Source: Phallusia mammillata
Lineage: Eukaryota
Assembly: GCA_965637545.1 (NCBI GenBank)
Contig: OZ281496.1
Span: forward strand, 24,986,001-25,050,000
Direction of reading: 5' to 3'
Length of the DNA: 64,000 nucleotides
In this document: one piece after another, positions 6,001 through 46,780 of the stretch
Position numbering within the stretch: position 1 is the first letter of the stretch
How the letters are laid out: each line of letters begins with the position of its first letter
Program-made: the position numbers and the translations under genes
The notes under the pieces: generated by a model
The model's input: the letters and a program-made list of their open reading frames with translations, nothing else
Databases searched by the model: none
What the model was told of the DNA's origin: nothing

Positions 6001-7950
6001 GGGCACACTTGGTGTGGCGGTGGTGATATTTTTGTTGGCAAGCGCTTTGGGTTCTGAAACAAAACACAAACTTGATAATTGATTTTCAATGTTCACAATA
6101 TAAATTGTGCATAAACAACGTAACACTATTTGGCAAGCAACACAAGAAACAATCATCGAATTTCAACATCAATAATCTGTTACCTGGAAAAACTTCATAG
6201 TGCAATGGAAATGATTGGTTCCACCCTGATGGCAAATCAGTTCGTATCACTTGTACAGTGAAATTGGAGTCACAAACTTTGGTGACTTTCAAATCAAAGG
6301 TACGCTTCGGTAGACCAGGAGCAGTCACCATCACTTCAACACTCTTGTTCAAAGTTGTATTGAAAGGAAAGGTAAATGAGGCAGTTGGAGTGGAACTGCT
6401 TGGAATGGTCATTGAACCATTCTGCAAAGCTGAAAAAAAACAAAGAAAGTAAAAATTCAAATATTTTTTCACAGAAAGGCAGTCGATTAAAAGCCTTACT
6501 TTGGGGCAAGCTTGGTGTAGTGGTAATGATATTTTTGTTGGCAAGCGCTTTGGGTTCTGAAACAAAACACAAACTTGAAATCTAATTTCCAATGTTTACA
6601 ACATTAACTGTGCATAAAGAGGTGCTCTATTTAGAAAATGACACAAGGAAAAATACTTCAATTTCAAGACAACGAATTCATTACCTGGATAAATTTTGTA
6701 ATGCAATGGAAATGATTGGTTCCACCCTGATGGCAAATCAGTCCGTTTCACTTGTACAGTAAAATTGGAGTCACAAATTTTGGTGACTTTCAAAGTAAAG
6801 GTATGCTTGGGTAATCCAGGTGCAGTCACCATCACTTCAACACTCTTGTTCAAAATTGTCTTGAGCGGAAAGGTAAATGATGCAGTTGGAGCAGAACTGC
6901 TCGGAATGGTCATTGAACCACTCTGCAAATCTGAAAAACAACAAAGAAATGAAGAGTCAATTATTTTTTGCAACAATCTACTGGATAAAGGCCTTACTTT
7001 GGGGTACACTTGGTGTAGTGGTAGCGACCTTTTTGTTGGCAAGGGCTTTGGGTTCTGAAACAAAACACAAACTTGATAATTGATTTTCAATGTTCACAAT
7101 AAAAATTGTGCATAAACACAGTAACACTATTTGGCAAGCAACACAAGAAACAATCATCGAATTTCAACATCACTAATCTATTACCTGGAAAAACTTCATA
7201 GTGCAATGGAAATGATTGGTTCCATCCTGATGGCAAATCAGTTCGTTTTACTTCCACAGTGAAATTGGAGTCACAAATTTGGGTGACTTTCAAATTAAAG
7301 GTATGCTTGGGTAATCCAGGTGCAGTCACCATCACTTCAACACTCTTGTTCAAAGTTTTCTTGAAAGGAAAGGTAAATGAGGCAGTTGGAGTAGAACTGC
7401 TCGGAATGGTCATTGAACCACTCTGCAAAGCTGAAAAACAATAAAGAAATGAAGAGTCAGTCAGATTTTTTACACAAATCAACTCGACAGGGGGCCTCAC
7501 TTTGGGGCACACTTGGTGCGGTGGTGGTGATATTTTTGTTAGCAAGCGCTTTGGGTTCTGAAACAAAACACAAACTTGAAATCTAATTTCCAATGTTTGC
7601 AATATTAATCATAATCAAAAGCATTACACTATTTGCCATGCAATGCAAACAACAATCTTCGAAATTCAACATCACAAACTCATTACCTGGAAAAACTTCA
7701 TAGTGCAATGGAAATGATTGGTTCCACCCTGATGGCAAATCAGTTCGTATCACTTGCACAGTAAAATTGGAGTCACAAACTTTGGTGACTTTCAAATTAA
7801 AGGTATGCTTGGGTAGACCAGGAGCAGTCACCATCACTTCAACACTCTTGTTCAAAGTTTTATTGAAAGGAAAGGTAAATAAGGCAGTTGGGGTAGAACT
7901 GCTCGGAATGGTCATTGAACCATTCTGCAAAGCTGAAAACAATATAGAAG
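1..7950 (-). repeat. 16 copies of a ~500-bp monomer (246-nt A-type domain exon plus 57-63-nt linker exon)
   Basis: Domain exons recur about every 500 bp from 141-386 up to ~7690-7930, with linker EPKALANKNITTT(T)PSVPQ. A partial linker exon at 1-11 shows that the array continues past the window edge. Confidence 0.95.
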
Positions 7951-10900
7951 TTTAGTCAAACAGATTTTTCTTGCAAATATACTGGATTTATAGCCTTACT
8001 TTGGGGTATACTTGGTGTAGTGGCTGTGATATTTTTGTTTGCAAGGGCTTTGGGTTCTGAAACAAAATACAAACTTGAAATTTGAATGAATCCACAAAGT
8101 GGATTCAATAGTTTGGAAAACTGACCTGAATACATTTTCCAATACAAAGTTGGCCGTGGCTTTTGGGCAACTGATGTATTTGAACCTGAAATTGTCACAT
8201 CAAATCCCCAGTCACATATTTTTACAACATTAACACTGTAGGTTGATTCTACACTCAACCAAACTCGAACTTGAATGCTCGAGTTCACACATGACTGGAA
8301 TGGAACTTTCAGGATCAATGGCACAGAAGATATTGGAGGAATTCTCATCTTTCCTTCTTGAAGAACTAAAACATTTTCGTAATTTAGTACAGATATTGTC
8401 AAAGCAAGTTCAAAAATAAATCATACAACCATGTTAGCAATAAAACGCAAGTATTAAACTCTCTTACTTTGAGGAGCATTTGATTGTGGTTTGATGGCTG
8501 TTTTGTTTGCAAGTTCTGGTTGCACTGCAATATAAAAACAAACCAGCTTGTCAAATAAAGTTGTAAACAAAAACTTTTGCACCTTTGACAGTTAAAACAC
8601 CTTTTGAAAAAGCAACATAGAAATGAAATAAAAAACTAAAATGATATATACCTGAGAAAACTTTGAATTGCAAAGGGAATGATTGATTCCATCCCAATGG
8701 CAGATCAATTCGTTTCACTTCCACAGTGAAATTGGAGTCACAAACTTTAGTGATTTTCAAAGCAATCCTATGATTTGGGAGACCAACTGCTGTTACCCAC
8801 ACTTCAACATTCTTGCTCAAAGTGCTATTAAATGGATATGTAAGTGAGGCAGTTGGACTAGAACTGATAGGAACAACTACATCACCCTTTTGTAACACTG
8901 AAGAAAACAAACAACAGCATTATTTATATATATTACACTTATTTCATTTCTGTCAGAATTTTACCTTGTGGTATGCCTGCAGTTGGAACTAAAAAAGATA
9001 TATGTTTCATTACTTAAGTATGATTGAAGTGTAATTGCAAGAACCAGTTGAAACAAAGACATTAGCTTACTTGCATCACTCCATCTTATTGCTTTCCAGT
9101 AAATCAGGCCATTTTCCTGCCAACCAACTGCTTTGTCCATTCTTGTGATGGACACATTAAAACCAAGATCAGAAGTAGAAGTAACCTTGACCACAAATGT
9201 TCCATTTTGAGCTAGGAATGTCACTTCAACTTTGGCTGTCTGTTTGATGCATGAGTTGAAAGGAACAAACTCATTCAACACCTGGGTACTGCTTGCTCCT
9301 ACTCCATGGATTCCACTTTGTATAACTACAAATAGAGACGAGATAAGCAAACCACACAATCAAACACCAATTTAACAACGCATGACTACTTGTCCAAACG
9401 CACCTTTTGATAGTGAAGCATTTTTTGTCAAAGCTACAGGTCCTGTAAGACAAAAGATGGAAATAAGCTGCTCTTTGACCCCAAAACTACATTGTTGAGT
9501 GAAGTTTCTACACTTTTCACTGTTACCTGAAAAAACTTCATAGAGCAATGGAAATGATTGGCTCCATCCTGATGGCAAATCAGTTCGTTTCACTTGCACA
9601 GTGAAATTGGAGTCACAAATTTGGATGAGTTTTAGAGTAAAGGTATGTTTGGGTAAACCAGGTGCAGTCACCATCACTTTAACACTCTTGTTCAAAGTTT
9701 TCTTGAAAGGAAAGGTAAATGAGGCAGTTGGAGTGGAACTGTTCGAAATGATCATTGAACCAGTCTGCAATGCTGAAAAAGAATAGAGAAGTAAAGAGTC
9801 GATCAAATTCTTTACACATATCTACTGAATAAAAGGCCTTACTTTGGGGCAGACTGGGTGTTGTGGCAGTGATATTTTTGTTAGCAAGTGCTTTGGGTTC
9901 TGAAACAAAACATAAACTTGAAATTTGATTTTGAGTGTTTGCCATGTTAATTGTGAATAAACTTTAATAAACAAGATTACACTATTTGACACACACAACA
10001 ATTTTTCAATTTCAAGAACATCAATACATTACCTGAGAAAACTTCATAGTGCAATGAGAATGATTGGTTCCACCCTGATGGCGCATCAATTCGTTTCACT
10101 TGCACAGTAAAATTGGAGTCACAAATTTTAGTGACTTTCAACGTAAAGGTATGTTTGGGTAGGCCAGGTGCAGTCACCATCACTTTAACACTCTTGTTCA
10201 AAGTTTTCTTGAAAGTAAAGGTAAATGAGGCAGTTGGAGTGGAACTGTTCGAAATGATCATTGAACCACTCTGCAATGCTGAAAAAGAATAGAGAAGTAA
10301 AGAGTCGATCAAATTCTTTACACATATCTACTGAATCAAAGGCCTTACTTTGGGGCAGACTGGGTGTTGTGGTAGTGATATTTTTGTTAGCAAGTGCTTT
10401 GGGTTCTGAAACAAAACATAAACTTGAAATTTGATTTTGAGTGTTTGCTACGTTAATTGTGAATAAACTTTAATAAAGAAAATGACACTATTTGACACAC
10501 ACAACATTTTTTCAATTTCAAGAACATTAATACATTACCTGAGAAAACTTCATAGTGCAATGAGAATGATTGGTTCCACCCTGATGGCACATCAATTCGT
10601 TTCACTTGCACAGTAAAATTGGAGTCACAAATTTTAGTGACTTTCAACGTAAAGGCATGTTTGGGTAGACCAGGTGCAGTCACCATCACTTCAACACTCT
10701 TGTTCAAAGTTTTATTGAAAGGAAAGGTAAATAAGGCAGTTGGGGTAGAACTGCTCGGAATGGTCATTGAACCATTCTGCAAAGCTGAAAACAATATAGA
10801 AGTTTAGTCAAACAGATTTTTCTTACAAATATACTGGATTTATAGCCTTACTTTGGGGTATACTTGGTGTAGTGGCTGTGATATTTTTGTTTGCAAGGGC

Positions 10901-13900
10901 TTTGGGTTCTGAAACAAAATACAAACTTGAAATTTGAATGAATCCACAAAGTGGATTCAATAGTTTTATAACTGACCTGAATACATTTTCCAATACAAAG
11001 TTGGCAGTGGCTTTTGAGCAACTGATGTATTTGAACCTGAAATTGTCACATCAAATCCCCATTCACATATTTTTACAACATAAACACTGTAGGTTGATTC
11101 TACACTCAACCAAACTCGAACTTGAATGCTCGAGTTCACACATGACTGGAATGGAACTTTCAGGATCAATGGCACAGAAGATATTGGAGGAATTCTCATC
11201 TTTCCTTCTTGAAGAACTAAAACATTTTCGTAATTTAGTACAGATATTGTCAAAGCAAGTTCAAAAATAAATCATACAACCATGTTAGCAATAAAACGCA
11301 AGTATTAAACTCTCTTACTTTGAGGAGCATTTGATTGTGGTTTGATGGCTGTTTTGTTTGCAAGTTCTGGTTGCACTACAATATAAAAACAAACCAGCTT
11401 GTCAAATAAAGTTGTAAACAAAAACTTTTGCACCTTTGACAGTTAAAACACCTTTTGACAAAGCAACGTAAAATGAAATAAAAACTAAAATGATATATAC
11501 CTGAGAAAACCTTATACTGCAATGGGAATGATTGATTCCATCCCAATGGCAGATCAATTCGTTTCACTTCCACAGTGAAATTGGAGTCACAAACTTTAGT
11601 GATTTTCAAAGCGATCCTATGATTTGGGAGACCAACTGCTGTTACCCACACTTCAACATTCTTGCTCAAAGTGTTATTAAATGGATATGTGAGTGAGGCA
11701 GTTGGACTAGAACTGATAGGAACAACTACATCACCCTTTTGTAACACTGAAGAAAACAAACAACAGCATTATTTATATATATTACACTTATTTCATTTCT
11801 GTCAGAATTTTACCTTGTGGTAGGCCTGCAGTTGCACCTAAAAATATATATATTTCATTACTCAAGTATGATTGAAGTGCTATTGCAAAATAAAACCGTT
11901 GAAATAGAGACATTAGCTTACTTGCATCACTCCATCTAAATGCTTTCCAGTAAATCAGGCCATTTTCCTGCCAACCAACTGCTTTGTCCATTCTTGTGAT
12001 GGACACATTAAAACCAAGATCAGAAGTAGATGTAACCTTGACCACAAATGTTCCATTTTGAGCTAGGAATGTCACTTCAACTTTGGCTGTCTGTTTGATG
12101 CATGAGTTGAAAGGAACAAACTCATTCAACACCTGGGTACTGCTTGCTCCTACTCCATGGATTCCACTTTGTATAACTACAAATAGAGACGAGATAAGCA
12201 AACCACACAATCAAACACCAATTTAACAACGCATGACTACTTGTCCAAATGCACCTTTTGATAGTGAAGCATTTTTTGTCAAAGCTACAGGTCCTGTAAG
12301 ACAAAAAATGGAAATCAACTGCTTTTTGACCACCAAAATACATTGTTGAGTTAATTTTTTGGCACTTTTCTCTGTTACCTGAAAAAACTTCATAGTACAA
12401 TGGAAATGATTGGTTCCACCCTGATGGCAAATCAGTTCGTTTCACTTGCACAGTGAAATTGGAGTCACAAATTTGGATGAGTTTTAGAGTAAAGGTATGC
12501 TTGGGTAAACCAGGTGCAGTCACCTTCACTTCAACACTCTTGTTCAAAGTTTTCTTGAAAGGAAAAGTAAATGAGGCAGTTGGAGTAGAACTGTTCGAAA
12601 TGATCATTGAACCATTCTGCAATGCTGAAAAAGAATAGAGAAGTGAAGAGTCGATCAAATTCTTTACACATATCTACTGAATTAAAGGCCTTACTTGGGG
12701 GCAGACTTGGTTTTGTGGTAGTGATATTTTTGTTAGCAAGTGCTTTGGGTTCTGAAACAAAACATAAACTTGAAATTTGATTTTGAGTGTTTGCCATGTT
12801 AATTGTGAATAAACTTTAATAAACAAGATTACACTATTTGACACACACAACAATGTTTCAATTTCAAGAACATCAATACATTACCTGAGAAAACTTCATA
12901 GTGCAATGAGAATGATTGGTTCCACCCTGATGGCAAATCAATTCGTTTCACTTGCACAGTGAAATTGGAGTCACAAATTTTAGTGACTTTCAAAGTAAAG
13001 GCATGTTTGGGTAGACCAGGTGCAGTCACCATCACTTCAACACTCTTGTTCAAAGTTTTATTGAAAGGAAAGGTAAATGAGGCAGTTGGAGTAGAACTGC
13101 TCGGAATGGTCATGGAACCATTCTGCAAAGCTGAAAAGCAATAGAGAAGTGAGGAGTCAATCAGATTTTTCACACAAAACCACTGGAGTTATAGCCTTAC
13201 TTTGGGGCACACTTGGTGTAGTGGTAGTGATAGTTTTGTTTGCAAGGGCTTTGGGTTCTGAAACAAAACACAAACTTGAAATTTGAATAAATTTGCAAAG
13301 TGGATTCAAAAGTTTGGAAAATTGACCTGAATACATTTTCCAATATAAAGTTGCACTTTGGTTCTGGAAAACTGATGTATTTGAACCTGAAATTGTCACA
13401 TCAAATCCCCAGTCACATATTTTTACAACATTAACACTGTAGGTTGATGCTACACTTAACCAAACTCGAACTTGAATGCTCGAGTTCACACATGACTGGA
13501 ATGGAACTTTCAGGTTCAATGGCACAGAAGATATTGGAGGAATTCTCATCTTTCCTTCTTGAAGAACTAAAACATTTTCGTAATTTAGTACAGATATTGT
13601 CAAAGCAAGTTCAAAAATAAATCATACAACCATTTTGGCAATAAAACACAAGTATTAAACTATCTTACTTTGAGGAGCATTTGATTGTGGTTTGATGGCT
13701 GTTTTGTTTGCAAGTTCTTGTTGCACTACAATATAAAAATGAACCAGCTAGTTAAATACAGTTGTAAAAAAAACGTTCGCACCTTTGACAGTTAAAACAC
13801 CTTTTGAAAAAGCAACGTAGAAATGAAATAAAAAACTAAAATGATATATACCTGAGAAAACTTTAAATTGCAAAGGGAATGATTGATTCCATCCCAATGG

Positions 13901-16900
13901 CAGATCAATTCGTTTCACTTCCACAGTGAAATTGGAGTCACAAACTTTAGTGATTTTCAAAGCAATCCTGTGATTTGGGAGACCAACTGCTGTTACCCAC
14001 ACTTCAACATTCTTGCTCAAAGTGCTATTAAATGGATATGTGAGTGAGGCAGTTGGACTAGAACTGATAGGAACAACTACATCACCCTTTTGTAACACTG
14101 AAGAAAACAAACAACAGCATTATTTATATATATTAGACTTATTTCATTTCTGTCAGAATTTTACCTTGTGGTAGGCCTGCAGTTGGAACTGAAAAAGATA
14201 TATGTTTCATTACTTAAGTATGATTGAAGTGTAATTGCAAGAACCAGTTGAAATAAATACATTAACTTACTTGCATCACTCCATCTAAATGCTTTCCAGT
14301 AAATCAGGCCATTTTCCTGCCAACCAACTGCTTTGTCCATTCTTGTGATGGACACATTAAAACCAAGATCAGAAGTAGATGTAACCTTGACCACAAATGT
14401 TCCATTTTGAGCTAGGAATGTCACTTCAACTTTGGCTGTCTGTTTGATGCATGAGTTGAAAGGAACAAACTCATTCAACACCTGGGTACTGCTTGCTCCT
14501 ACTCCATGGATTCCACTTTGTATAACTAAAAATAGAGACGAGATAAGCAAACCACACAATCAAACACCAATTTAACAACGCATGACTACTTGTCCAAACG
14601 CACCTTTTGATAGTGAAGCATTTTTTGTCAAAGCTACAGGTTCTGTAAGACAAAAATTGAAATCAACTGCTTTTTGACCACTAAAATACATTGTTGAGTT
14701 AATTTTTTGGCACTTTTCTCTGTTACCTGAAAAAACTTCATAGTACAATGGAAATGATTGGTTCCACCCTGATGGCAAATCAGTTCGTTTCACTTGCACA
14801 GTGAAATTGGAGTCACAAATTTGGATGAGTTTTAGAGTAAAGGTATGCTTGGGTAAACCAGGTGCAGTCACCTTCACTTCAACACTCTTGTTCAAAGTTT
14901 TCTTGAAAGGAAAAGTAAATGAGGCAGTTGGAGTAGAACTGTTCGAAATGATCATTGAACCAGTCTGCAATGCTGAAAAAGAATAGAGAAGTAAAGAGTC
15001 GATCAAATTCTTTACACATATCTACTGAATTAAAGGCCTTACTTTGGGGCAGACTTGGTTTTGTGGCAGTGATATTTTTGTTAGCAAGTGCTTTGGGTTC
15101 TGAAACAAAACATAAACTTGAAATTTGATTTTGAGTGTTTGCCATGTTAATTGTGAATAAACTTTAATAAACAAGATTACACTATTTGACACACACAACA
15201 ATTTTTCAATTTCAAGAACATCAATACATTACCTGAGAAAACTTCATAGTGCAATGAGAATGATTGGTTCCACCCTGATGGCAAATCAATTCGTTTCACT
15301 TGCACAGTGAAATTGGAGTCACAAATTTTAGTGACTTTCAAAGTAAAGGCATGTTTGGGTAGACCAGGTGCAGTCACCATCACTTCAACACTCTTGTTCA
15401 AAGTTTTATTGAAAGGAAAGGTAAATGAGGCAGTTGGAGTAGAACTGCTCGGAATGGTCATGGAACCATTCTGCAAAGCTGAAAAGCAATAGAGAAGTGA
15501 GGAGTCAATCAGATTTTTCACACAAAACCACTGGAGTTATAGCCTTACTTTGGGGCACACTTGGTGTAGTGGTAGGGATAGTTTTGTTTGCAAGGGCTTT
15601 GGGTTCTGAAACAAAACACAAACTTGAAATTTGAATAAATTTGCAAAGTGGATTCAATAGTTTGGAAAATTGACCTGAATACATTTTCCAATATAAAGTT
15701 GCACTTTGGTTCTGGGAAACTGGTGCATTTGAACCTGAAATTGTCACATCAAATCCCCAGTCACATATTTTTACAACATTAACACTGTAGGTTGATGCTC
15801 CACTCAACCAGACTCGAACTTGAATGCTCGAGTTCACGCATGACTGGAATGGAACTTTCAGGATCAATGGCACAGAAGATATTGGAGGAATTATCATCTT
15901 TCCTTCTTGAAGAACTAAAAACATTTTCGTAATTTAGTACAGATATTGTCAAAGCAAGTTCAAAAATAAATCATACAACCATTTTGGCAATAAAACACAA
16001 GTATTAAACTATCTTACTTTGAGGAGCATTTGATTGTGGTTTGATGGCTGTTTTGTTTGCAAGTTCTGGTTGCACTGCAATATAAAAAACAAACCAGCTT
16101 GACACATACAATTAAAAATATAAAGTTTGTCGCTTTGACAGTTAAAACACCTTTTAACAAAGCAACATAAAAATGAAATCAAAATAAATATGAAAAATAC
16201 CTGATAAAACCTTATACTGCAATGGGAATGATTGATTCCATCCCAATGGCAGATCAATTCGTTTCACTTCCACAGTGAAATTGGAGTCACAAACATTAGT
16301 GATTTTCAAAGCAATCCTATGATTTGGGAGACCAACTGCTGTTACCCACACTTCAACATTCTTGCTCAAAGTGCTATTAAATGGATATGTAAGTGAGGCA
16401 GTTGGACTAGAACTGATAGGAACAACTACATCACCCTTTTGTAACACTGAAGAAAACAAACAACAGCATTATTTATATATATTACACTTATTTCATTTCT
16501 GTCAGAATTTTACCTTGTGGTATGCCTGCAGTTGGAACTGAAAAAGATATATGTTTCATTACTCAAGTATGTTTGAAGTGTAATTGCAAGAACCAATTGA
16601 AATAAATACATTAACTTACTTGCATCACTCCATCTAAATGCTTTCCAGTAAATCAGGCCATTTTCCTGCCAACCAACTGCTTTGTCCATTCTTGTGATGG
16701 ACACATTAAAACCAAGATCAGAAGTAGATGTAACCTTGACCACAAATGTTCCATTTTGAGCTAGGAATGTCACTTCAACTTTGGCTGTCTGTTTGATGCA
16801 TGAGTTGAAAGGAACAAACTCATTCAACACCTGGGTACTGCTTGCTCCTACTCCATGGATTCCACTTTGTATAACTAAAAATAGAGACGAGATAAGCAAA

Positions 16901-19900
16901 CCACACAAACAAACACCAATTTAACAACGCATGACTACTTGTCCAAACTCACCTTTTGATAGTGAAGCATTTTTTGTCAAAGCTACAGGTTCTGTAAGAC
17001 AAAAATTGAAATCAACTGCTTTTTGACCACCAAAATACATTGTTGAGTTAATTTTTTTGCACTTTTCTCTGTTACCTGTAAAAACTTCATAGTACAATGG
17101 AAATGATTGGTTCCACCCTGATGGCAAATCAGTTCGTTTCACTTGCACAGTGAAATTGGAGTCACAAATTTGGATGAGTTTTAGAGTAAAGGTATGCTTG
17201 GGTAAACCAGGTGCAGTCACCTTCACTTCAACACTCTTGTTCAAAGTTTTCTTGAAAGGAAAAGTAAATGAGGCAGTTGGAGTAGAACTGTTCGAAATGA
17301 TCATTGAACCAGTCTGCAATGCTGAAAAAGAATAGAGAAGTAAAGAGTCGACCAAATTCTTTACACATATCTACTGAATTAAAGGCCTTACTTGGGGGCA
17401 GACTTGGTTTTGTGGCAGTGATATTTTTGTTAGCAAGTGCTTTGGGTTCTGAAACAAAACATAAACTTGAAATTTGATTTTGAGTGTTTGCCATGTTAAT
17501 TGTGAATAAACTTTAATAAACAAGATTACACTATTTGACACACACAACAATTTTTCAATTTCAAGAACATCAATACATTACCTGAGAAAACTTCATAGTG
17601 CAATGAGAATGATTGGTTCCACCCTGATGGCAAATCAATTCGTTTCACTTGCACAGTGAAATTGGAGTCACAAATTTTAGTGACTTTCAAAGTAAAGGCA
17701 TGTTTGGGTAGACCAGGTGCAGTCACCATCACTTCAACACTCTTGTTCAAAGTTTTATTGAAAGGAAAGGTAAATGAGGCAGTTGGAGTAGAACTGCTCG
17801 GAATGGTCATGGAACCATTCTGCAAAGCTGAAAAGCAATAGAGAAGTGAGGAGTCAATCAGATTTTTCACACAAAACCACTGGAGTTATAGCCTTACTTT
17901 GGGGCACACTTGGTGTAGTGGTAGTGATAGTTTTGTTTGCAAGGGCTTTGGGTTCTGAAACAAAATACAAACTTGAAATTTGAATAAATTTGCAAAGTGG
18001 ATTCAATAGTTTGGAAAATTGACCTGAATACATTTTCCAATATAAAGTTGCACTTTGGTTCTGGGAAACTGGTGCATTTGAACATGAAATTGTCACATCA
18101 AATCCCCAGTCACATATTTTTACAACATTAACAATGTAGGTTGATGCTCCACTCAACCAGACTCGAACTTGAATGCTCGAGTTCACGCATGACTGGAATG
18201 GAACTTTCAGGTTCAATGGCACAGAAGATATTGGAGGAATTATCATCTTTCCTTCTTGAAGAACTAAAAACATTTTTCGTAATTTAGTACAGATATTGTC
18301 AAAGCAAGTTCAAAAATAAATCATACAACCATTTTGGCAATAAAACACAAGTATTAAACACTCTTACTTTGAGGAGCATTTGATTGTGGTTTGATGGCTG
18401 TTTTGTTTGCAAGTTCTGGTTGCACTGCAATATAAAAAACAAACCAGCTTGACACATACAATTAAAAATATAAAGTTTGTCGCTTTGACAGTTAAAACAC
18501 CTTTTGACAAAGCAACATAAAAATGAAATCAAAATCAAAATGAAAAATACCTGATAAAACCTTATACTGCAATGGGAATGATTGATTCCATCCCAATGGC
18601 AGATCAATTCGTTTCACTTCCACAGTGAAATTGGAGTCACAAACATTAGTGATTTTCAAAGCAATCCTATGATTTGGGAGACCAACTGCTGTTACCCACA
18701 CTTCAACATTCTTGCTCAAAGTGCTATTAAATGGATATGTGAGTGAGGCAGTTGGACTAGAACTGATAGGAACAACTACATCACCCTTTTGTAACACTGA
18801 AGAAAACAAACAACAGCATTATTTATATATATTACACTTATTTCATTTCTGTCAGAATTTTACCTTGTGGTATGCCTGCAGTTGGAACTGAAAAAGATAT
18901 ATGTTTCATTACTCAAGTATGTTTGAAGTGTAATTGCAAGAACCAGTTGAAATAAATACATTAACTTACTTGCATCACTCCATCTAAATGCTTTCCAGTA
19001 AATCAGGCCATTTTCCTGCCAACCAACTGCTTTGTCCATTCTTGTGATGGACACATTAAAACCAAGATCAGAAGTAGATGTAACCTTGACCAAAAATGTT
19101 CCATTTTGAGCTAGGAATGTCACTTCAACTTTGGCTGTCTGTTTGATGCATGAGTTGAAAGGAACAAACTCATTCAACACCTGGGTACTGCTTGCTCCTA
19201 CTCCATGGATTCCACTTTGTATAACTAAAAATAGAGACGAGATAAGCAAACCACACAATCAAACACCAATTTAACAACGCATGACTACTTGTCCAAACGC
19301 ACCTTTTGATAGTGAAGCATTTTTTGTCAAAGCTACAGGTTCTGTAAGACAAAAATTGAAATCAACTGCTTTTTGACCACTAAAATACATTGTTGAGTTA
19401 ATTTTTTGGCACTTTTCTCTGTTACCTGAAAAAACTTCATAGTACAATGGAAATGATTGGTTCCACCCTGATGGCAAATCAGCTCGTTTCACTTGCACAG
19501 TGAAATTGGAGTCACAAATTTGGATGAGTTTTAGAGTAAAGGTATGCTTGGGTAAACCAGGTGCAGTCACCTTCACTTCAACACTCTTGTTCAAAGTTTT
19601 CTTGAAAGGAAAAGTAAATGAGGCAGTTGGAGTAGAACTGTTCGAAATGATCATTGAACCAGTCTGCAATGCTGAAAAAGAATAGAGAAGTAAAGAGTCG
19701 ATCAAATTCTTTACACATATCTACTGAATTAAAGGCCTTACTTGGGGGCAGACTTGGTTTTGTGGCAGTGATATTTTTGTTAGCAAGTGCTTTGGGTTCT
19801 GAAACAAAACATAAACTTGAAATTTGATTTTGAGTGTTTGCCATGTTAATTGTGAATAAACTTTAATAAACAAGATTACACTATTTGACACACACAACAA

Positions 19901-22900
19901 TTTTTCAATTTCAAGAACATCAATACATTACCTGAGAAAACTTCATAGTGCAATGAGAATGATTGGTTCCACCCTGATGGCAAATCAATTCGTTTCACTT
20001 GCACAGTGAAATTGGAGTCACAAATTTCAGTGACTTTCAAAGTAAAGGCATGTTTGGGTAGACCAGGTGCAGTCACCATCACTTCAACACTCTTGTTCAA
20101 AGTTTTATTGAAAGGAAAGGTAAATGAGGCAGTTGGAGTAGAACTGCTCGGAATGGTCATGGAACCATTCTGCAAAGCTGAAAAGCAATAGAGAAGTGAG
20201 GAGTCAATCAGATTTTTCACACAAAACCACTGGAGTTATAGCCTTACTTTGGGGCACACTTGGTGTAGTGGTAGGGATAGTTTTGTTTGCAAGGGCTTTG
20301 GGTTCTGAAACAAAACACAAACTTGAAATTTGAATAAATTTGCAAAGTGGATTCAATAGTTTGGAAAATTGACCTGAATACATTTTCCAATATAAAGTTG
20401 CACTTTGGTTCTGGGAAACTGGTGCATTTGAACCTGAAATTGTCACATCAAATCCCCAGTCACATATTTTTACAACATTAACACTGTAGGTTGATGCTCC
20501 ACTCAACCAGACTCGAACTTGAATGCTCGAGTTCACGCATGACTGGAATGGAACTTTCAGGATCAATGGCACAGAAGATATTGGAGGAATTATCATCTTT
20601 CCTTCTTGAAGAACTAAAAACATTTTCGTAATTTAGTACAGATATTGTCAAAGCAAGTTCAAAAATAAATCATACAACCATTTTGGCAATAAAACACAAG
20701 TATTAAACACTCTTACTTTGAGGAGCATTTGATTGTGGTTTGATGGCTGTTTTGTTTGCAAGTTCTGGTTGCACTGCAATATAAAAAACAAACCAGCTTG
20801 ACACATACAATTAAAAATATAAAGTTTGTCGCTTTGACAGTTAAAACACCTTTTAACAAAGCAACATAAAAATGAAATAAAAATAAATATGAAAAATACC
20901 TGATAAAACCTTATACTGCAATGGGAATGATTGATTCCATCCCAATGGCAGATCAATTCGTTTCACTTCCACAGTGAAATTGGAGTCACAAACATTAGTG
21001 ATTTTCAAAGCAATCCTATGATTTGGGAGACCAACTGCTGTTACCCACACTTCAACATTCTTGCTCAAAGTGCTATTAAATGGATATGTGAGTGAGGCAG
21101 TTGGACTAGAACTGATAGGAACAACTACATCACCCTTTTGTAACACTGAAGAAAACAAACAACAGCATTATTTATATATATTACACTTATTTCATTTCTG
21201 TCAGAATTTTACCTTGTGGTATGCCTGCAGTTGGAACTGAAAAAGATATATGTTTCATTACTCAAGTATGTTTGAAGTGTAATTGCAAGAACCAGTTGAA
21301 ATAAATACATTAACTTACTTGCATCACTCCATCTAAATGCTTTCCAGTAAATCAGGCCATTTTCCTGCCAACCAACTGCTTTGTCCATTCTTGTGATGGA
21401 CACATTAAAACCAAGATCAGAAGTAGATGTAACCTTGACCACAAATGTTCCATTTTGAGCTAGGAATGTCACTTCAACTTTGGCTGTCTGTTTGATGCAT
21501 GAGTTGAAAGGAACAAACTCATTCAACACCTGGGTACTGCTTGCTCCTACTCCATGGATTCCACTTTGTATAACTAAAAATAGAGACGAGATAAGCAAAC
21601 CACACAATCAAACACCAATTTAACAACGCATGACTACTTGTCCAAACGCACCTTTTGATAGTGAAGCATTTTTTGTCAAAGCTACAGGTTCTGTAAGACA
21701 AAAATTGAAATCAACTGCTTTTTGACCACTAAAATACATTGTTGAGTTAATTTTTTGGCACTTTTCTCTGTTACCTGAAAAAACTTCATAGTACAATGGA
21801 AATGATTGGTTCCACCCTGATGGCAAATCAGCTCGTTTCACTTGCACAGTGAAATTGGAGTCACAAATTTGGATGAGTTTTAGAGTAAAGGTATGCTTGG
21901 GTAAACCAGGTGCAGTCACCTTCACTTCAACACTCTTGTTCAAAGTTTTCTTGAAAGGAAAAGTAAATGAGGCAGTTGGAGTAGAACTGTTCGAAATGAT
22001 CATTGAACCAGTCTGCAATGCTGAAAAAGAATAGAGAAGTAAAGAGTCGATCAAATTCTTTACACATATCTACTGAATTAAAGGCCTTACTTGGGGGCAG
22101 ACTTGGTTTTGTGGCAGTGATATTTTTGTTAGCAAGTGCTTTGGGTTCTGAAACAAAACATAAACTTGAAATTTGATTTTGAGTGTTTGCCATGTTAATT
22201 GTGAATAAACTTTAATAAACAAGATTACACTATTTGACACACACAACAATTTTTCAATTTCAAGAACATCAATACATTACCTGAGAAAACTTCATAGTGC
22301 AATGAGAATGATTGGTTCCACCCTGATGGCAAATCAATTCGTTTCACTTGCACAGTGAAATTGGAGTCACAAATTTCAGTGACTTTCAAAGTAAAGGCAT
22401 GTTTGGGTAGACCAGGTGCAGTCACCATCACTTCAACACTCTTGTTCAAAGTTTTATTGAAAGGAAAGGTAAATGAGGCAGTTGGAGTAGAACTGCTCGG
22501 AATGGTCATGGAACCATTCTGCAAAGCTGAAAAGCAATAGAGAAGTGAGGAGTCAATCAGATTTTTCACACAAAACCACTGGAGTTATAGCCTTACTTTG
22601 GGGCACACTTGGTGTAGTGGTAGGGATAGTTTTGTTTGCAAGGGCTTTGGGTTCTGAAACAAAACACAAACTTGAAATTTGAATAAATTTGCAAAGTGGA
22701 TTCAATAGTTTGGAAAATTGACCTGAATACATTTTCCAATATAAAGTTGCACTTTGGTTCTGGGAAACTGGTGCATTTGAACCTGAAATTGTCACATCAA
22801 ATCCCCAGTCACATATTTTTACAACATTAACACTGTAGGTTGATGCTCCACTCAACCAGACTCGAACTTGAATGCTCGAGTTCACGCATGACTGGAATGG

Positions 22901-25900
22901 AACTTTCAGGATCAATGGCACAGAAGATATTGGAGGAATTATCATCTTTCCTTCTTGAAGAACTAAAAACATTTTCGTAATTTAGTACAGATATTGTCAA
23001 AGCAAGTTCAAAAATAAATCATACAACCATTTTGGCAATAAAACACAAGTATTAAACTATCTTACTTTGAGGAGCATTTGATTGTGGTTTGATGGCTGTT
23101 TTGTTTGCAAGTTCTGGTTGCACTGCAATATAAAAAACAAACCAGCTTGACACATACAATTAAAAATATAAAGTTTGTCGCTTTGACAGTTAAAACACCT
23201 TTTAACAAAGCAACATAAAAATGAAATCAAAATAAATATGAAAAATACCTGATAAAACCTTATACTGCAATGGGAATGATTGATTCCATCCCAATGGCAG
23301 ATCAATTCGTTTCACTTCCACAGTGAAATTGGAGTCACAAACATTAGTGATTTTCAAAGCAATCCTATGATTTGGGAGACCAACTGCTGTTACCCACACT
23401 TCAACATTCTTGCTCAAAGTGCTATTAAATGGATATGTGAGTGAGGCAGTTGGACTAGAACTGATAGGAACAACTACATCACCCTTTTGTAACACTGAAG
23501 AAAACAAACAACAGCATTATTTATATATATTACACTTATTTCATTTCTGTCAGAATTTTACCTTGTGGTATGCCTGCAGTTGGAACTGAAAAAGATATAT
23601 GTTTCATTACTCAAGTATGTTTGAAGTGTAATTGCAAGAACCAGTTGAAATAAATACATTAACTTACTTGCATCACTCCATCTAAATGCTTTCCAGTAAA
23701 TCAGGCCATTTTCCTGCCAACCAACTGCTTTGTCCATTCTTGTGATGGACACATTAAAACCAAGATCAGAAGTAGATGTAACCTTGACCACAAATGTTCC
23801 ATTTTGAGCTAGGAATGTCACTTCAACTTTGGCTGTCTGTTTGATGCATGAGTTGAAAGGAACAAACTCATTCAACACCTGGGTACTGCTTGCTCCTACT
23901 CCATGGATTCCACTTTGTATGACTAAAAATAGAGACGAGATAAGCAAACCACACAATCAAACACCAATTTAACAACGCATGACTACTTGTCCAAACGCAC
24001 CTTTTGATAGTGAAGCATTTTTTGTCAAAGCTACAGGTTCTGTAAGACAAAAATTGAAATCAACTGCTTTTTGACCACTAAAATACATTGTTGAGTTAAT
24101 TTTTTGGCCCTTTTCTCTGTTACCTGAAAAAACTTCATAGTACAATGGAAATGATTGGTTCCACCCTGATGGCAAATCAGTTCGTTTCACTTGCACAGTG
24201 AAATTGGAGTCACAAATTTGGATGAGTTTTAGAGTAAAGGTATGCTTGGGTAAACCAGGTGCAGTCACCTTCACTTCAACACTCTTGTTCAAAGTTTTCT
24301 TGAAAGGAAAAGTAAATGAGGCAGTTGGAGTAGAACTGTTCGAAATGATCATTGAACCAGTCTGCAATGCTGAAAAAGAATAGAGAAGTAAAGAGTCGAC
24401 CAAATTCTTTACACATATCTACTGAATTAAAGGCCTTACTTGGGGGCAGACTTGGCTTTGTGGCAGTGATATTTTTGTTAGCAAGTGCTTTGGGTTCTGA
24501 AACAAAACATAAACTTGAAATTTGATTTTGAGTGTTTGCCATGTTAATTGTGAATAAACTTTAATAAACAAGATTACACTATTTGACACACACAACAATT
24601 TTTCAATTTCAAGAACATCAATACATTACCTGAGAAAACTTCATAGTGCAATGAGAATGATTGGTTCCACCCTGATGGCAAATCAATTCGTTTCACTTGC
24701 ACAGTGAAATTGGAGTCACAAATTTCAGTGACTTTCAAAGTAAAGGCATGTTTGGGTAGACCAGGTGCAGTCACCATCACTTCAACACTCTTGTTCAAAG
24801 TTTTATTGAAAGGAAAGGTAAATGAGGCAGTTGGAGTAGAACTGCTCGGAATGGTCATGGAACCATTCTGCAAAGCTGAAAAGCAATAGAGAAGTGAGGA
24901 GTCAATCAGATTTTTCACACAAAACCACTGGAGTTATAGCCTTACTTTGGGGCACACTTGGTGTAGTGGTAGGGATAGTTTTGTTTGCAAGGGCTTTGGG
25001 TTCTGAAACAAAACACAAACTTGAAATTTGAATAAATTTGCAAAGTGGATTCAATAGTTTGGAAAATTGACCTGAATACATTTTCCAATATAAAGTTGCA
25101 CTTTGGTTCTGGGAAACTGGTGCATTTGAACCTGAAATTGTCACATCAAATCCCCAGTCACATATTTTTACAACATTAACACTGTAGGTTGATGCTCCAC
25201 TCAACCAGACTCGAACTTGAATGCTCGAGTTCACGCATGACTGGAATGGAACTTTCAGGATCAATGGCACAGAAGATATTGGAGGAATTATCATCTTTCC
25301 TTCTTGAAGAACTAAAAACATTTTCGTAATTTAGTACAGATATTGTCAAAGCAAGTTCAAAAATAAATCATACAACCATTTTGGCAATAAAACACAAGTA
25401 TTAAACACTCTTACTTTGAGGAGCATTTGATTGTGGTTTGATGGCTGTTTTGTTTGCAAGTTCTGGTTGCACTGCAATATAAAAAACAAACCAGCTTGAC
25501 ACATACAATTAAAAATATAAAGTTTGTCGCTTTGACAGTTAAAACACCTTTTAACAAAGCAACATAAAAATGAAATAAAAATAAATATGAAAAATACCTG
25601 ATAAAACCTTATACTGCAATGGGAATGATTGATTCCATCCCAATGGCAGATCAATTCGTTTCACTTCCACAGTGAAATTGGAGTCACAAACATTAGTGAT
25701 TTTCAAAGCAATCCTATGATTTGGGAGACCAACTGCTGTTACCCACACTTCAACATTCTTGCTCAAAGTGTTATTAAATGGATATGTGAGTGAGGCAGTT
25801 GGACTAGAACTGATAGGAACAACTATATCACCCTTTTGTAACACTGAAGAAAACAAACAACAGCATTATTTATATATATTACACTTATTTCATTTCTGTC

Positions 25901-28900
25901 AGAATTTTACCTTGTGGTAGGCCTGCAGTTGGAACTGAAAAAGATATATGTTTCATTACTCAAGTATGTTTGAAGTGTAATTGCAAGAACCAGTTGAAAT
26001 AAATACATTAACTTACTTGCATCACTCCATCTAAATGCTTTCCAGTAAATCAGGCCATTTTCCTGCCAACCAACTGCTTTGTCCATTCTTGTGATGGACA
26101 CATTAAAACCAAGATCAGAAGTAGATGTAACCTTGACCACAAATGTTCCATTTTGAGCTAGGAATGTCACTTCAACTTTGGCTGTCTGTTTGATGCATGA
26201 GTTGAAAGGAACAAACTCATTCAACACCTGGGTACTGCTTGCTCCTACTCCATGGATTCCACTTTGTATAACTAAAAATAGAGACGAGATAAGCAAACCA
26301 CACAATCAAACACCAATTTAACAACGCATGACTACTTGTCCAAACGCACCTTTTGATAGTGAAGCATTTTTTGTCAAAGCTACAGGTTCTGTAAGACAAA
26401 AATTGAAATCAACTGCTTTTTGACCACTAAAATACATTGTTGAGTTAATTTTTTGGCCCTTTTCTCTGTTACCTGAAAAAACTTCATAGTACAAAGGAAA
26501 TGATTGGTTCCACCCTGATGGCAAATCAGTTCGTTTCACTTGCACAGTGAAATTGGAGTCACAAATTTGGATGAGTTTTAGAGTAAAGGTATGCTTGGGT
26601 AAACCAGGTGCAGTCACCTTCACTTCAACACTCTTGTTCAAAGTTTTCTTGAAAGGAAAAGTAAATGAGGCAGTTGGAGTAGAACTGTTCGAAATGATCA
26701 TTGAACCAGTCTGCAATGCTGAAAAAGAATAGAGAAGTAAAGAGTCGATCAAATTCTTTACACATATCTACTGAATTAAAGGCCTTACTTGGGGGCAGAC
26801 TTGGTTTTGTGGTAGTGATATTTTTGTTAGCAAGTGCTTTGGGTTCTGAAACAAAACATAAACTTGAAATTTGATTTTGAGTGTTTGCCATCTTAATTGT
26901 GAATAAACTTTAATAAACAAGATTACACTATTTGACACACAAAACAATTTTTCAATTTCAAGAACATCAATACATTACCTGAGAAAACTTCATAGTGCAA
27001 TGAGAATGATTGGTTCCACCCTGATGGCAAATCAATTCGTTTCACTTGCACAGTGAAATTGGAGTCACAAATTTTAGTGACTTTCAAAGTAAAGGCATGT
27101 TTGGGTAGACCAGGTGCAGTCACCATCACTTCAACACTCTTGTTCAAAGTTTTATTGAAAGGAAAGGTAAATGAGGCAGTTGGAGTAGAACTGCTCGGAA
27201 TGGTCATGGAACCATTCTGCAAAGCTGAAAAGCAATAGAGAAGTGAGGAGTCAATCAGATTTTTCACACAAAACCACTGGAGTTATAGCCTTACTTTGGG
27301 GCACACTTGGTGTAGTGGTAGTGATAGTTTTGTTTGCAAGGGCTTTGGGTTCTGAAACAAAATACAAACTTGAAATTTGAATAAATTTGCAAAGTGGATT
27401 CAATAGTTTGGAAAATTGACCTGAATACATTTTCCAATATAAAGTTGCACTTTGGTTCTGGGAAACTGATGCATTTGAACCTGAAATTGTCACATCAAAT
27501 CCCCAGTCACATATTTTTACAACATTAACACTGTAGGTTGATGCTACACTTAACCAAACTCGAACTTGAATGCTCGAGTTCACACATGACCGGAATGGAA
27601 CTTTCAGGTTCAATGGCACAGAAGATATTGGAGGAATTCTCATCTTTCCTTCTTGAAGAACTAAAACATTTTCGTAATTTAGTACAGATATTGTCAAAGC
27701 AAGTTCAAAAATAAATCATACAACCATTTTGGCAATAAAACACAAGTATTAAACTATCTTACTTTGAGGAGCATTTGATTGTGGTTTGATGGCTGTTTTG
27801 TTTGCAAGTTCTTGTTGCACTACAATATAAAAATGAACCAGCTAGTTAAATACAGTTGTAAAAAAAACATTCGCACCTTTGACAGTTAAAACACCTTTTG
27901 AAAAAGCAACGTAGAAATGAAATAAAAAACTAAAATGATATATACCTGAGAAAACTTTAAATTGCAAAGGGAATGATTGATTCCATCCCAATGGCAGATC
28001 AATTCGTTTCACTTCCACAGTGAAATTGGAGTCACAAACATTAGTGATTTTCAAAGCAATCCTGTGATTTGGGAGACCAACTGCTGTTACCCACACTTCA
28101 ACATTCTTGCTCAAAGTGTTATTAAATGGATATGTGAGTGAGGCAGTTGGACTAGAACTGATAGGAACAACTACATCACCCTTTTGTAACACTGAAGAAA
28201 ACAAACAACAGCATTATTTATATATATTACACTTATTTCATTTCTGTCAGAATTTTACCTTGTGGTAGGCCTGCAGTTGGAACTGAAAAAGATATATGTT
28301 TCATTACTCAAGTATGTTTGAAGTGTAATTGCAAGAACCAGTTGAAATAAATACATTAACTTACTTGCATCACTCCATCTAAATGCTTTCCAGTAAATCA
28401 GGCCATTTTCCTGCCAACCAACTGCTTTGTCCATTCTTGTGATGGACACATTAAAACCAAGATCAGAAGTAGATGTAACCTTGACCACAAATGTTCCATT
28501 TTGAGCTAGGAATGTCACTTCAACTTTGGCTGTCTGTTTGATGCATGAGTTGAAAGGAACAAACTCATTCAACACCTGGGTACTGCTTGCTCCTACTCCA
28601 TGGATTCCACTTTGTATAACTAAAAATAGAGACGAGATAAGCAAACCACACAATCAAACACCAATTTAACAACGCATGACTACTTGTCCAAACGCACCTT
28701 TTGATAGTGAAGCATTTTTTGTCAAAGCTACAGGTCCTGTAAGACAAAAATTGAAATCAACTGCTTTTTGACCACTAAAATACATTGTTCAGTTATTTTT
28801 TTTGCACTTTTCTCTGTTACCTGAAAAAACTTCATAGTACAATGGAAATGATTGGTTCCACCCTGATGGCAAATCAGTTCGTTTCACTTGCACAGTGAAA

Positions 28901-31900
28901 TTGGAGTCACAAATTTGGATGAGTTTTAGAGTAAAGGTATGCTTGGGTAAACCAGGTGCAGTCACCTTCACTTCAACACTCTTGTTCAAAGTTTTCTTGA
29001 AAGGAAAAGTAAATGAGGCAGTTGGAGTAGAACTGTTCGAAATGATCATTGAACCAGTCTGCAATGCTGAAAAAGAATAGAGAAGTAAAGAGTCGATCAA
29101 ATTCTTTACACATATCTACTGAATTAAAGGCCTTACTTTGGGGCAGACTTGGTTTTGTGGCAGTGATATTTTTGTTAGCAAGTGCTTTGGGTTCTGAAAC
29201 AAAACATAAACTTGAAATTTGATTTTGAGTGTTTGCCATGTTAATTGTGAATAAACTTTAATAAACAAGATTACACTATTTGACACACACAACAATTTTT
29301 CAATTTCAAGAACATCAATACATTACCCGAGAAAACTTCATAGTGCAATGAGAATGATTGGTTCCACCCTGATGGCAAATCAGTTCGTTTCACTTGCACA
29401 GTGAAATTGGAGTCACAAATTTTAGTGACTTTCAAAGTAAAGGCATGTTTGGGTAGACCAGGTGCAGTCACCATCACTTCAACACTCTTGTTCAAAGTTT
29501 TATTGAAAGGAAAGGTAAATGAGGCAGTTGGAGTAGAACTGCTCGGAATGGTCATGGAACCATTCTGCAAAGCTGAAAAGCAATAGAGAAGTGAGGAGTC
29601 AATCAGATTTTTCACACAAAACCACTGGAGTTATAGCCTTACTTTGGGGCACACTTGGTGTAGTGGTAGGGATAGTTTTGTTTGCAAGGGCTTTGGGTTC
29701 TGAAACAAAACACAAACTTGAAATTTGAATAAATTTGCAAAGTGGATTCAATAGTTTGGAAAATTGACCTGAATACATTTTCCAATATAAAGTTGCACTT
29801 TGGTTCTGGGAAACTGGTGCATTTGAACCTGAAATTGTCACATCGAATCCCCAGTCACAAATTTTTACAACATTAACACTGTAGGTTGATGCTCCACTCA
29901 ACCAGACTCGAACTTGAATGCTCGAGTTCACGCATGACTGGAATGGAACTTTCAGGATCAATGGCACAGAAGATATTGGAGGAATTATCATCTTTCCTTC
30001 TTGAAGAACTAAAAACATTTTCGTAATTTAGTACAGATATTGTCCAAGCAAGTTCAAAAATAAATCATACAACCATTTTGGCAATAAAACACAAGTATTA
30101 AACACTCTTACTTTGAGGAGCATTTGATTGTGGTTTGATGGCTGTTTTGTTTGCAAGTTCTGGCTGCACTGCAATATAAAAAACAAACCAGCTTGACACA
30201 TACAATTAAAAATATAAAGTTTGTCGCTTTGACAGTTAAAACACCTTTTAACAAAGCAACATAAAAATGAAATCAAAATAAATATGAAAAATACCTGATA
30301 AAACCTTATACTGCAATGGGAATGATTGATTCCATCCCAATGGCAGATCAATTCGTTTCACTTCCACAGTGAAATTGGAGTCACAAACATTAGTGATTTT
30401 CAAAGCAATCCTGTGATTTGGGAGACCAACTGCTGTTACCCACACTTCAACATTCTTGCTCAAAGTGTTATTAAATGGATATGTGAGTGAGGCAGTTGGA
30501 CTAGAACTGATAGGAACAACTACATCACCCTTTTGTAACACTGAAGAAAACAAACACCAGCATTATTTATATATATTACACCTATTTCATTTCTGTCAGA
30601 ATTTTACCTTGTGGTAGGCCTGCAGTTGGACCTAAAAAAGATATATATTTCATTACTCAAGTATGTTTGAAGTGTAATTGCAAGAACCAGTTGAACCAAA
30701 TACATTAGCTTACTTGCATCACTCCATCTAAATGCTTTCCAGTAAATCAGGCCATTTTCCTGCCAACCAACTGCTTTGTCCATTCTTGTGATGGACACAT
30801 TAAAACCAAGATCAGAAGTAGATGTAACCTTGACCACAAATGTTCCATTTTGAGCTAGGAATGTCACTTCAACTTTGGCTGTCTGTTTGATGCACGAGTT
30901 GAAAGGAACAAACACATTCAACACCTGGGTACTGCTTGCACCTACTCCATGGGTTCCACTTTGTATAACTGAAATTTTGAAAGATGTTCATAACTTTTGC
31001 AATCACGCATTAATTAAACAACAATATCACTGCTTGTCCAATTACAGATGACAGTAAAAATCAACTCACCCTTTGATACAGAAGCATTTTTTGTCAAAGC
31101 AACAGATTCTGTAAAAACAAGAAATTAAAATTAAATTGTTTTAGATCACAAAAATATAGCCTTGAGTAAAGATTTTCGTGTTTCTCACTATTACCTGAGA
31201 AAACTTTATACTGCAATGGAAATGATTGGTTCCAACCTGATGGCATATCAGTCCGTTTTACTTGTACTGTAAAATGTGAGTCACAAACTTTGGTAATTTT
31301 CAAACTAAAGGTATGTTTTGGAAGACGAACAGATGACACCACCACTTCGACATTCTTGTTTAAAGTTGTATTAAATGGAAAGGTGAAAAAGGCAGTTGGA
31401 GTAGAACTGCTTGGAATAACTACATCACCAGTTTGCAATGCTAAAACATAAAAATAAGAGTGACAACTGTATAACTGCATGTTTGTTTCACAATGTTTAT
31501 GGTTATGAAAAAAGTTATCCCCAGTAATCATCTAAACTTACGATCTGTAATACTTTGGAATGCAAAAGAACCTCCCCAACTGGCAAAAGATTTGCTTGTT
31601 ACATTGTTTTGGGTGCTCCCAGTGTATGTAGACTGCCCCTGGTATTTGAAAACAGTGACAATGCCACCAGAATCTAAATAAATAATATTTTTTTGTTAAT
31701 ACCTGCATTAATTCACTTGCCAGAGCTTTTAGATTATTTTAGGCAAACTAAACTAGTTTCAGTCAAGTGAAGTTAGAAAACACAATAACTTTTATGGCAG
31801 TGATGTTTGTGTTTTTACAGGACAATATCATTTTTGATTCACTCAGTTGTGAATGTTTAGTATTTAATATGATATACCTGTTATACGTCCATTATGAATT

Positions 31901-46438: not shown

Positions 46439-46439
46439 G

Positions 46440-46780
46440 GTATCAGAAAACCGGGGGATTTGGGGAACATCTGCAATAGCTTGTCGTATGGAGAAAGCAA
46501 AGAATGAAGAGTGCTAAGCTGTGGCGGTTGACAAAGAGACATTTTCATGGGAAAACTTGTGAACGCTTCGGAGTGCACAAGACGTTTTTTGTCAATGTCG
46601 ACCGACAAACGATTAGCACGGAGAAAATCTGCACCAAGCAGTGGACGCGATACATCAGCCAACACAAACCTCCATTTGAAAACTCCAGCTGAAAAATGAA
46701 GTGTAACAGATTTGTAGCCGTAAGTAGCTATGGAACTTCCATTAGCGGCCTTAAGAAAGAAACCCGTATGGTTGGCACGT
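46440..46780 (-). pseudogene. Truncated aspartic protease segment, out of frame with RT
   Basis: LKAANGSSIATYG...FVLADVSRPLLGADFL is the C-terminal half of a retropepsin, and the catalytic DTG is missing. The frame breaks at ~46445-46465, before ...FSDTLPKHGV. Confidence 0.8.

Follow-up and report, generated by a model that had tools for sequence, protein, structure and literature searches.

Human ADGRV1 (VLGR1) has 6,306 amino acids encoded in 90 exons (PMC12481715, excerpt) and is described as larger than any other adhesion G protein-coupled receptor (GPCR) (PMC13197933, excerpt). Its very long ectodomain of repeated Calx-beta domains forms fibrous links between membranes. Higher-order repeats (HORs) inside coding genes are described for NBPF, where Olduvai 3-mer HORs are built of two-exon monomers, and for hornerin, which has a quartic HOR (PMC9584774, excerpt). 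In Ciona, 24 of 30 adhesion GPCRs are 'unclassified', and 21 of these 24 were reported with only a GPS motif in the N-terminus (PMC2396169, excerpt). Here we analyzed a 64,000-nucleotide stretch of the ascidian Phallusia mammillata (GenBank assembly GCA_965637545.1, contig OZ281496.1, positions 24,986,001 to 25,050,000 of the forward strand; hereafter the window), which contains a protein-coding HOR array on its minus strand. The initial annotation dealt with the array and did not recognize the gene, which is likely an adhesion GPCR with the array as its ectodomain and its 3' end beyond the window. We favor, with reasonable confidence, a reading in which it forms the middle of one giant ectodomain (predicted protein, 9,118 amino acids) and serves chiefly as a tether that is long, flexible and glycosylated.

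Like ADGRV1, the predicted Phallusia receptor would join a seven-transmembrane (7TM) region to a very long ectodomain in which a single kind of domain is repeated. It differs in the domain, a predicted H-type lectin fold instead of Calx-beta, in its predicted 9,118 amino acids and 187 exons, and in repeats that are young, near-identical and arranged in a higher-order register. There is no sign of orthology to ADGRV1: the 7TM region finds its best matches, of no more than 30-38 bits, in ADGRG2, D1, G6 and E1. As in NBPF, diverged two-exon monomers were joined in a fixed block and amplified in tandem within a coding gene, introns included. Unlike NBPF and hornerin, the unit has five modules and 2.35 kb, its monomers go down to about 30% amino acid identity, and it belongs to an ascidian receptor ectodomain. 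The comparison with centromeric HORs in the initial annotation is an apt description but not a new one, since the NBPF/Olduvai triplets and hornerin are already coding HORs; the present array is a clean further case beside them. Like the unclassified Ciona receptors, this gene is lineage-specific, ascidian, part of a paralogous cluster and without vertebrate orthologs, whereas no H-type lectin modules are named for the Ciona receptors (PMC2396169, excerpt). We found no description of the gene or of H-type modules in an adhesion GPCR in a literature search that left subscription journals mostly uncovered; the term 'H-type' is absent from the excerpt of PMC13197933, and 'lectin' and 'LCCL' are absent from PMC12716839. 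The HOR is real and ordinary in kind, and what is likely new is the receptor architecture and the predicted size.

Self-BLAST of the window revealed two periods, one of 2.35 kb that spans about 8.0-31.4 kb and a distinct one of about 503 bp from position 1 to 8.1 kb. At an offset of one unit (about 2,346 bp), 19,087 bp aligned with 97.3% identity, and the period recurred at all multiples up to eight units. Tandem Repeats Finder, with its period limit of 500, is blind to the pentamer unit. Splice sites and similarity served to map exons on the minus strand, to which all gene coordinates here refer. In many domain exons of types A and C, the donor giving 246 bp was used over later donors (279-282 bp), and the GT was verified each time. 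The exon map contains ten D exons, from 30968 to 9325, and the successive unit starts are spaced by 2372, 2348, 2349, 2349, 2349, 2350, 2349, 2349 and 2851 bp. The array had been described as about ten copies of a 2349-bp D-C-B-A-A' pentamer. Ten units do begin with D and 2349 bp is the commonest spacing, but only eight of the ten are true pentamers, and the spacing ranges from 2348 to 2372 bp with 2851 bp for a hexamer. Units 1-8 (12379..31108; starts at 31108, 28736, 26388, 24039, 21690, 19341, 16991 and 14642) have the order l1-D-l2-C-l3-B-l4-A-l5-A', where l1 to l5 are linker exons, as supported by self-BLAST, the exon map and spliced RNA contigs. Each measures 2,348-2,372 bp and encodes 489 amino acids in 10 exons, in agreement with the super-repeat length of about 490 given earlier. 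Unit 9 (9527..12293; 2,851 bp) is a D-C-B-A-A-A' hexamer with one extra A, and unit 10 (8126..9442) consists of D-C-B only and merges into an array of A-type monomers.

The monomer array occupies 1..7932 of the window in the exon map and extends 4.9 kb before window position 1, to contig position 24,981,101. It comprises 26 monomers of about 503 bp, each with a 246-bp domain exon and a 57-63-bp linker exon rich in Thr and Pro. Window positions 1-7000 and 1.5 kb before the window start hold a partial higher-order duplication of six modules (3,028 bp) with patchy identity, and five exon pairs are identical or near-identical at the six-module lag. Pentamer units 2 and 8 are likewise six units apart. 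A protein search of the animal's own genome gave 83 matches, all on the contig of the window, at 24.896-25.025 Mb.

Every module consists of a short linker exon and a domain exon of 240-255 bp, all of phase 1-1 with AG/GT ends, and the linkers are type-specific with 7-18 amino acids. The five domain types had been called clearly diverged. This is accurate for D and B, which share 28-34% amino acid identity with any other type, but the divergence is uneven, with 84% identity between A and A', 67% between C and A, and 63% between C and A'. Judged from these sequences and a concordant tree, there are three deeply diverged module lineages: D, B and A/C.

The pentamer unit is expressed and, for most of its length, spliced as modelled. 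We used four public RNA runs from two studies, whose RNA nature was taken from GT-AG splice joints and not from the run records; the evidence consists of contigs, with no raw or long reads, and the joints and pieces reported are the best-supported ones listed. The intron between B and l4 is spliced out in contigs of all four runs, covering both studies, and the intron between l3 and B in three of the four. The D-l2-C junction with an insert of mini-exon size was found in all four runs, as was l1 preceding D, and a single 1,014-nt contig spans D, C and B. A joint leading directly from l4 to an A'-type exon, present in three of the four runs, reflects either exon skipping or an origin in the monomer array. 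In the 3' part of the gene, the 12 GT-AG joints listed fit the model in three of the four runs (12, 12 and 11 of 12; one study), and a single 3,072-nt contig runs from module T1 through the GPS exon. Exons for the signal peptide, module N1, the LCCL domains and the first A module have no piece among the RNA pieces listed, which is uninformative on their expression.

The units are very similar but distinct. None of the 28 pairs among units 1-8 is identical, and the differences range from 4 to 100 nt, with 4-18 nt within units 3-7 and only 4 nt between units 4 and 5. Exon divergence among units (0.07-2.5%) contrasts with 16-72% amino acid difference among module types, so the array agrees with the usual description of a coding HOR, in which between-unit divergence is <5% and far below that between monomers (PMC9584774, excerpt). 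The introns had been called near-identical; this was borne out, although in units 2-8 they diverge about twice as much as exons (2.2% vs 0.97%). The proportion of synonymous differences (pS) was 1.3% and that of non-synonymous differences (pN) 0.87% in these units. The distinct variants in units 1-8 include 30 non-synonymous and 20 synonymous ones (pN/pS 0.46, binomial p=0.011), the monomer array has a pN/pS of 0.36, and all exons are open with no frameshift or stop. The array is under modest purifying selection.

The distribution of variants bears on how the array grew. Of 164 variable columns, 76 are private to unit 1, mainly at its outer end, and its first intron is 23 bp longer. The non-adjacent units 2 and 8 have 39 variants common only to them, mostly in one tract of the C-B part, and the closest partners in D-B are units 9 and 10, with 33 differences. 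A homogeneous center, diverged edges and tracts shared between distant units are the expected traces of unequal crossing-over with conversion. The array has all three features, so the pattern suggests that a five-module block was copied and then homogenized via unequal crossing-over and gene conversion. Because linker and domain exons are both of phase 1-1, duplication of one or more complete modules leaves the frame intact. The expansion was probably driven by recombination. The earlier proposal of recent expansion or concerted evolution is supported by the small differences in the center, the diverged edges and the tract common to units 2 and 8.

The exon chain continues in frame for 18.2 kb before the window start to a GPS motif, a 7TM region and a stop. 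From N1 to the stop, there is one open frame of 9,097 amino acids in 186 exons, all with AG/GT ends, and a predicted signal exon brings the model to 9,118 amino acids and 187 exons. The model contains a signal peptide, 83 modules including the array, two LCCL domains near the N-terminus, a GAIN/GPS region and 7TM. The predicted first coding exon (41376..41436; 20 codons of signal peptide, ending in phase 1) was chosen from two hydrophobic ATG-started candidates at 38990-48300 for its higher hydrophobicity and better donor, and it joins in frame. Next come two diverged modules at the N-terminus (37064..38943), N1 at 38943-38698 and N2 at 37303-37064, together with their linker exons; N2 clusters with type B in the tree (100/98; flagged for its long branch). 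Two LCCL domains (Pfam PF03815; 31542..34026) of two exons each enclose a C-like module (32583-32338). Both exons of the first copy score above the PF03815 cut-off, and the second copy is 74-87% identical to the first. A single A/C-like module (31195..31440; exon map and tree) precedes the array. Beyond the monomers and outside the window, also on the minus strand, follow four diverged modules, T0-T3 (contig about 24,980,260-24,976,390), then a stalk rich in Thr, a GAIN-like region and the GPS exon (reaching contig about 24,971,460; RNA joints and identity to a database protein), and the 7TM region, tail and stop (to contig about 24,967,820; 7tm_2 match and identity to the same protein).

That protein, P0002 (CAB3229160.1, 'CD97 antigen-like', Phallusia mammillata), equals the last 1,086 amino acids of the model with 100% identity and no gaps. 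Three fragments (P0001, P0003 and P0004) are similar to pieces of the array. The databases searched hold the gene as unconnected pieces only, with no domain call for the module. P0002 has 18 PDB matches at E<=0.01, every one an adhesion GPCR and most of them some 270 residues long, and the alignments to ADGRD1, G6, E5 and G3 reach across the GPS. The exon for transmembrane helices 2-3 (TM2-3) matches Pfam 7tm_2 with 24.3 bits (cut-off 20.6), and six hydrophobic stretches are above the threshold used. The GPS exon, immediately ahead of the first transmembrane helix, has four Cys and one Trp and matches Pfam GPS at E 0.0033 and 18.3 bits, below the cut-off of 22.5. For the GAIN region, the top Atlas clusters were GPS/GAIN at 0.86, below the 0.9 threshold and a lead only; one GAIN acceptor in the final model agrees with both an RNA joint and P0002. 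The GPS reads Gln-Val-Thr, with Gln at the place of the catalytic His, while the GPS of self-cleaving adhesion GPCRs is typically His-Leu/Ile-Ser/Thr (PMC13197933, excerpt). Judging from this replacement of the His, the receptor likely stays uncleaved. Non-cleaved adhesion GPCRs exist (PMC13197933, excerpt), so the absent His is compatible with membership of the family. Ortholog searches with the GAIN-7TM part found only P0002 and nothing among longer proteins, which is weak evidence from a word-limited search. None of the other proteins fetched had at least three hydrophobic segments or a matching C-terminal part.

The modules are predicted to have an H-type lectin fold, with sugar binding putative. 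AlphaFold2 modelled the A module with six strands and a predicted local distance difference test (pLDDT) of 93. A VIA-align search of 48,161 chains placed among its top six the C-terminal domain of a phage tailspike (Z 10.6), Helix pomatia agglutinin (9.3), discoidin I (9.0) and SLL-2 (8.5). The model thus resembles the six-strand sandwich of Helix pomatia agglutinin (2ccv), discoidin I (2w94), SLL-2 (3wmp) and the related C-terminal domains of phage tailspikes (4ru4, 4ru5), with Z of 8.5-10.6 and a root-mean-square deviation (rmsd) of 2.0-2.4 over 79-81 residues (2.1 over 79 for the agglutinin). Unlike H-type lectins, to which its identity is 10-12%, the module would occur in 83 copies per chain instead of a homotrimer, and any pocket or binding is putative. 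H-type lectins bind Gal/GalNAc (PMC11377244, excerpt). A profile of 15 modules gave 106 matches at E<=0.001 among 1.84 billion proteins, with Clavelina and Branchiostoma proteins among the named relatives. Pfam H_lectin was found at E<=0.01 in 24 of the 33 profile matches scanned, 19 of them above the cut-off, and 35 of 104 relatives have two or three module copies. Two Clavelina lepadiformis proteins (P0010 and P0015), unnamed in databases, are likely secreted and combine 2-3 H-type modules with a Gly-rich region after them. Distant relatives share a near-invariant Arg and Gly ahead of the last strand; type B is without the Arg and Gly-Trp of this motif. Each unit carries 20 N-glycosylation sequons (2-5 per module), the linkers are 35% Pro+Thr, and Cys residues number two in B and one in D.

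The tether reading combines these features in the following way. The modules would fold as six-stranded H-type-lectin sandwiches on Pro/Thr-rich linkers with no fixed packing, giving a chain estimated from typical domain sizes at about 0.3-0.7 micrometers. This chain would keep a diverged head (N1, N2 and two LCCL domains) at a distance from the membrane. Pull or binding may be relayed via GAIN to the 7TM region, as the family suggests. We infer both the tether role and the signalling. Whether the array serves mainly as length seems to us evenly balanced.

Several observations weigh against this reading. No RNA contig crosses the whole gene, no joint or piece among the best-supported ones listed connects the last A monomer with T0, the signal exon is a prediction with no RNA support, and the copy number comes from one assembly. 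P0002 itself starts inside T0, and a whole-protein Pfam scan of it listed neither 7tm_2 nor GPS. For the fold, Pfam H_lectin (PF09458) has no direct match in the single modules scanned or in P0001-P0004, and the H-type link runs via the relatives. Sequence searches of the PDB with module profiles gave chance matches only, with no alignment to Helix pomatia agglutinin or discoidin. Atlas H_lectin and Gp53-like clusters at 0.93-0.94 are weak, their recognition value being below threshold, and Foldseek lists the same folds as VIA-align at E of only 0.01-0.1. In the small neighboring paralogs, the module was the sole ectodomain unit sought and detected, which suggests a binding role over that of a spacer.

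In the main alternative, which we hold as tentative, every module would function as a lectin, and the array would be a multivalent sensor of glycans on microbes, the tunic, the egg coat or neighboring cells, with copy number raising avidity. The H-type fold, the H_lectin-bearing relatives with their frequent two or three copies, the near-invariant Arg and Gly, the purifying selection and the same module in paralogs agree with it. The known H-type pocket, however, sits between trimer subunits, with Trp/Tyr in the discoidin pocket (10.64898/2026.06.18.733164, excerpt), and on this alternative three receptor chains, or adjacent modules, would build the sites together from their modules. The pocket residues are putative given the lack of sequence alignment to known lectins, type B departs from the motif, and the sequons in every module also speak against it. 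This alternative is compatible with the tether role. The initial annotation proposed instead that the super-repeat of about 490 amino acids may be the functional or structural unit. The super-repeats of titin and nebulin would be a parallel. The order kept in eight units, the type-specific linkers, and a putative pairing of the two Cys of B with the one of D across modules would fit. But the same frame tolerates a hexamer, one incomplete unit and a run of 26 monomers, block duplication alone gives a constant order, and the introns were homogenized too. In an AlphaFold2 run on three tandem A-type modules, the domains appeared to fold independently (pLDDT about 90, linkers <50) with a predicted template modelling score of 0.35, although the alignment was shallow (19 rows) and such a low score is weak evidence; no packing was predicted for this triple, and the full pentamer was not folded. 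We consider selection for the pentamer unlikely, and the proposal was not upheld.

Two further explanations concern the gene itself. The locus could hold two genes, a secreted LCCL/lectin polymer and a separate adhesion GPCR of about 1,090 amino acids beginning at T0. The start of P0002 within T0, the step at the last monomer that no listed contig bridges and a jump in intron size at that boundary would be expected from such a pair. However, the modelled array has no stop or terminal exon, and its last exon ends in a phase-1 GT donor that is followed by a phase 1-1 linker and T0; the continuity of the last monomer with T0 rests on this phase and on the lack of a terminal exon. The start of P0002 has no hydrophobic segment, and RNA contigs have 48 and 145 additional letters upstream of T0, as the single-gene model predicts, in a placement that was not listed. 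The ectodomain is joined to the 7TM chain at its near end by the RNA contig from T1-T3 to the GPS and by P0002, and at the pentamer array by the open in-frame model. One gene very probably extends from the array to the 7TM region, and two genes are improbable. The number of units might also be inflated by assembly, as the 4-nt difference between units 4 and 5 and the use of RNA contigs in place of raw or long reads could suggest. Against this, no two units are identical, the exons are free of frameshifts, and the longest exact repeat in the array (1,615 bp) is shorter than a unit. Synonymous changes are enriched among the variants, and where RNA contigs depart from unit 1 in exons B and C, the allele is present in another assembled unit in all six cases listed. 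Inflation is very unlikely.

The giant gene is an outlier in a lineage-specific family. At least seven more adhesion-GPCR paralogs lie in tandem on the same strand at contig 24,869,000-24,953,000 (33-117 kb before the window start), and several look like recent duplicates. In seven of these, within about 100 kb downstream, the module exons number 5, 0, 1, 2, 0, 2 and at least 6, assigned by position only, with an iterated profile that included many of the matches and a best reversed-frame control of E 0.096. The six paralog GPS motifs examined are all without His, and a genome-wide search with TM2-3 gave 20 matches on three contigs. If the full-length model is true, the receptor is some 2,800 residues longer than ADGRV1 and brings a further domain type into the adhesion GPCRs, and paralogs with a related 7TM region and 0 to at least 6 modules, compared with 83, provide a natural experiment on ectodomain length or valency versus signalling. 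The module copy number is typable in wild animals. It is a rather doubtful proposition that this is the largest GPCR yet described, an H-type-lectin-fold chain on a 7TM region whose reach and glycan avidity are tuned by copy number and symmetric-exon skipping in a family with 0-83 modules.

Other features were observed in the window. In the intron from N2 to the first LCCL domain, a 129-bp tandem repeat (3.9 copies) and related elements lie at 35809-36318 and 34450-34760. Many diverged contigs match this intron, so the 129-bp element probably belongs to a dispersed family. A short inverted repeat, with arms of about 50 bp, was seen by eye at 40400-40505, in the intron that follows the predicted signal exon. 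Upstream of the predicted first exon, a pol frame of the LTR-retrotransposon type (877 amino acids with reverse transcriptase, RNase H and integrase) lies at 43880-46513 on the minus strand, flanked by similar stretches of about 170 bp near 43690-43870 and 46790-46950. An MGAT4-like glycosyltransferase gene is located at 48269-51787 on the minus strand, with two exons above the Pfam MGAT4_cons cut-off. Exon-like frames of a further gene or genes occupy 55196-63370 on the minus strand; among the six scanned with Pfam, five had no match and one had a weak match below the cut-off.

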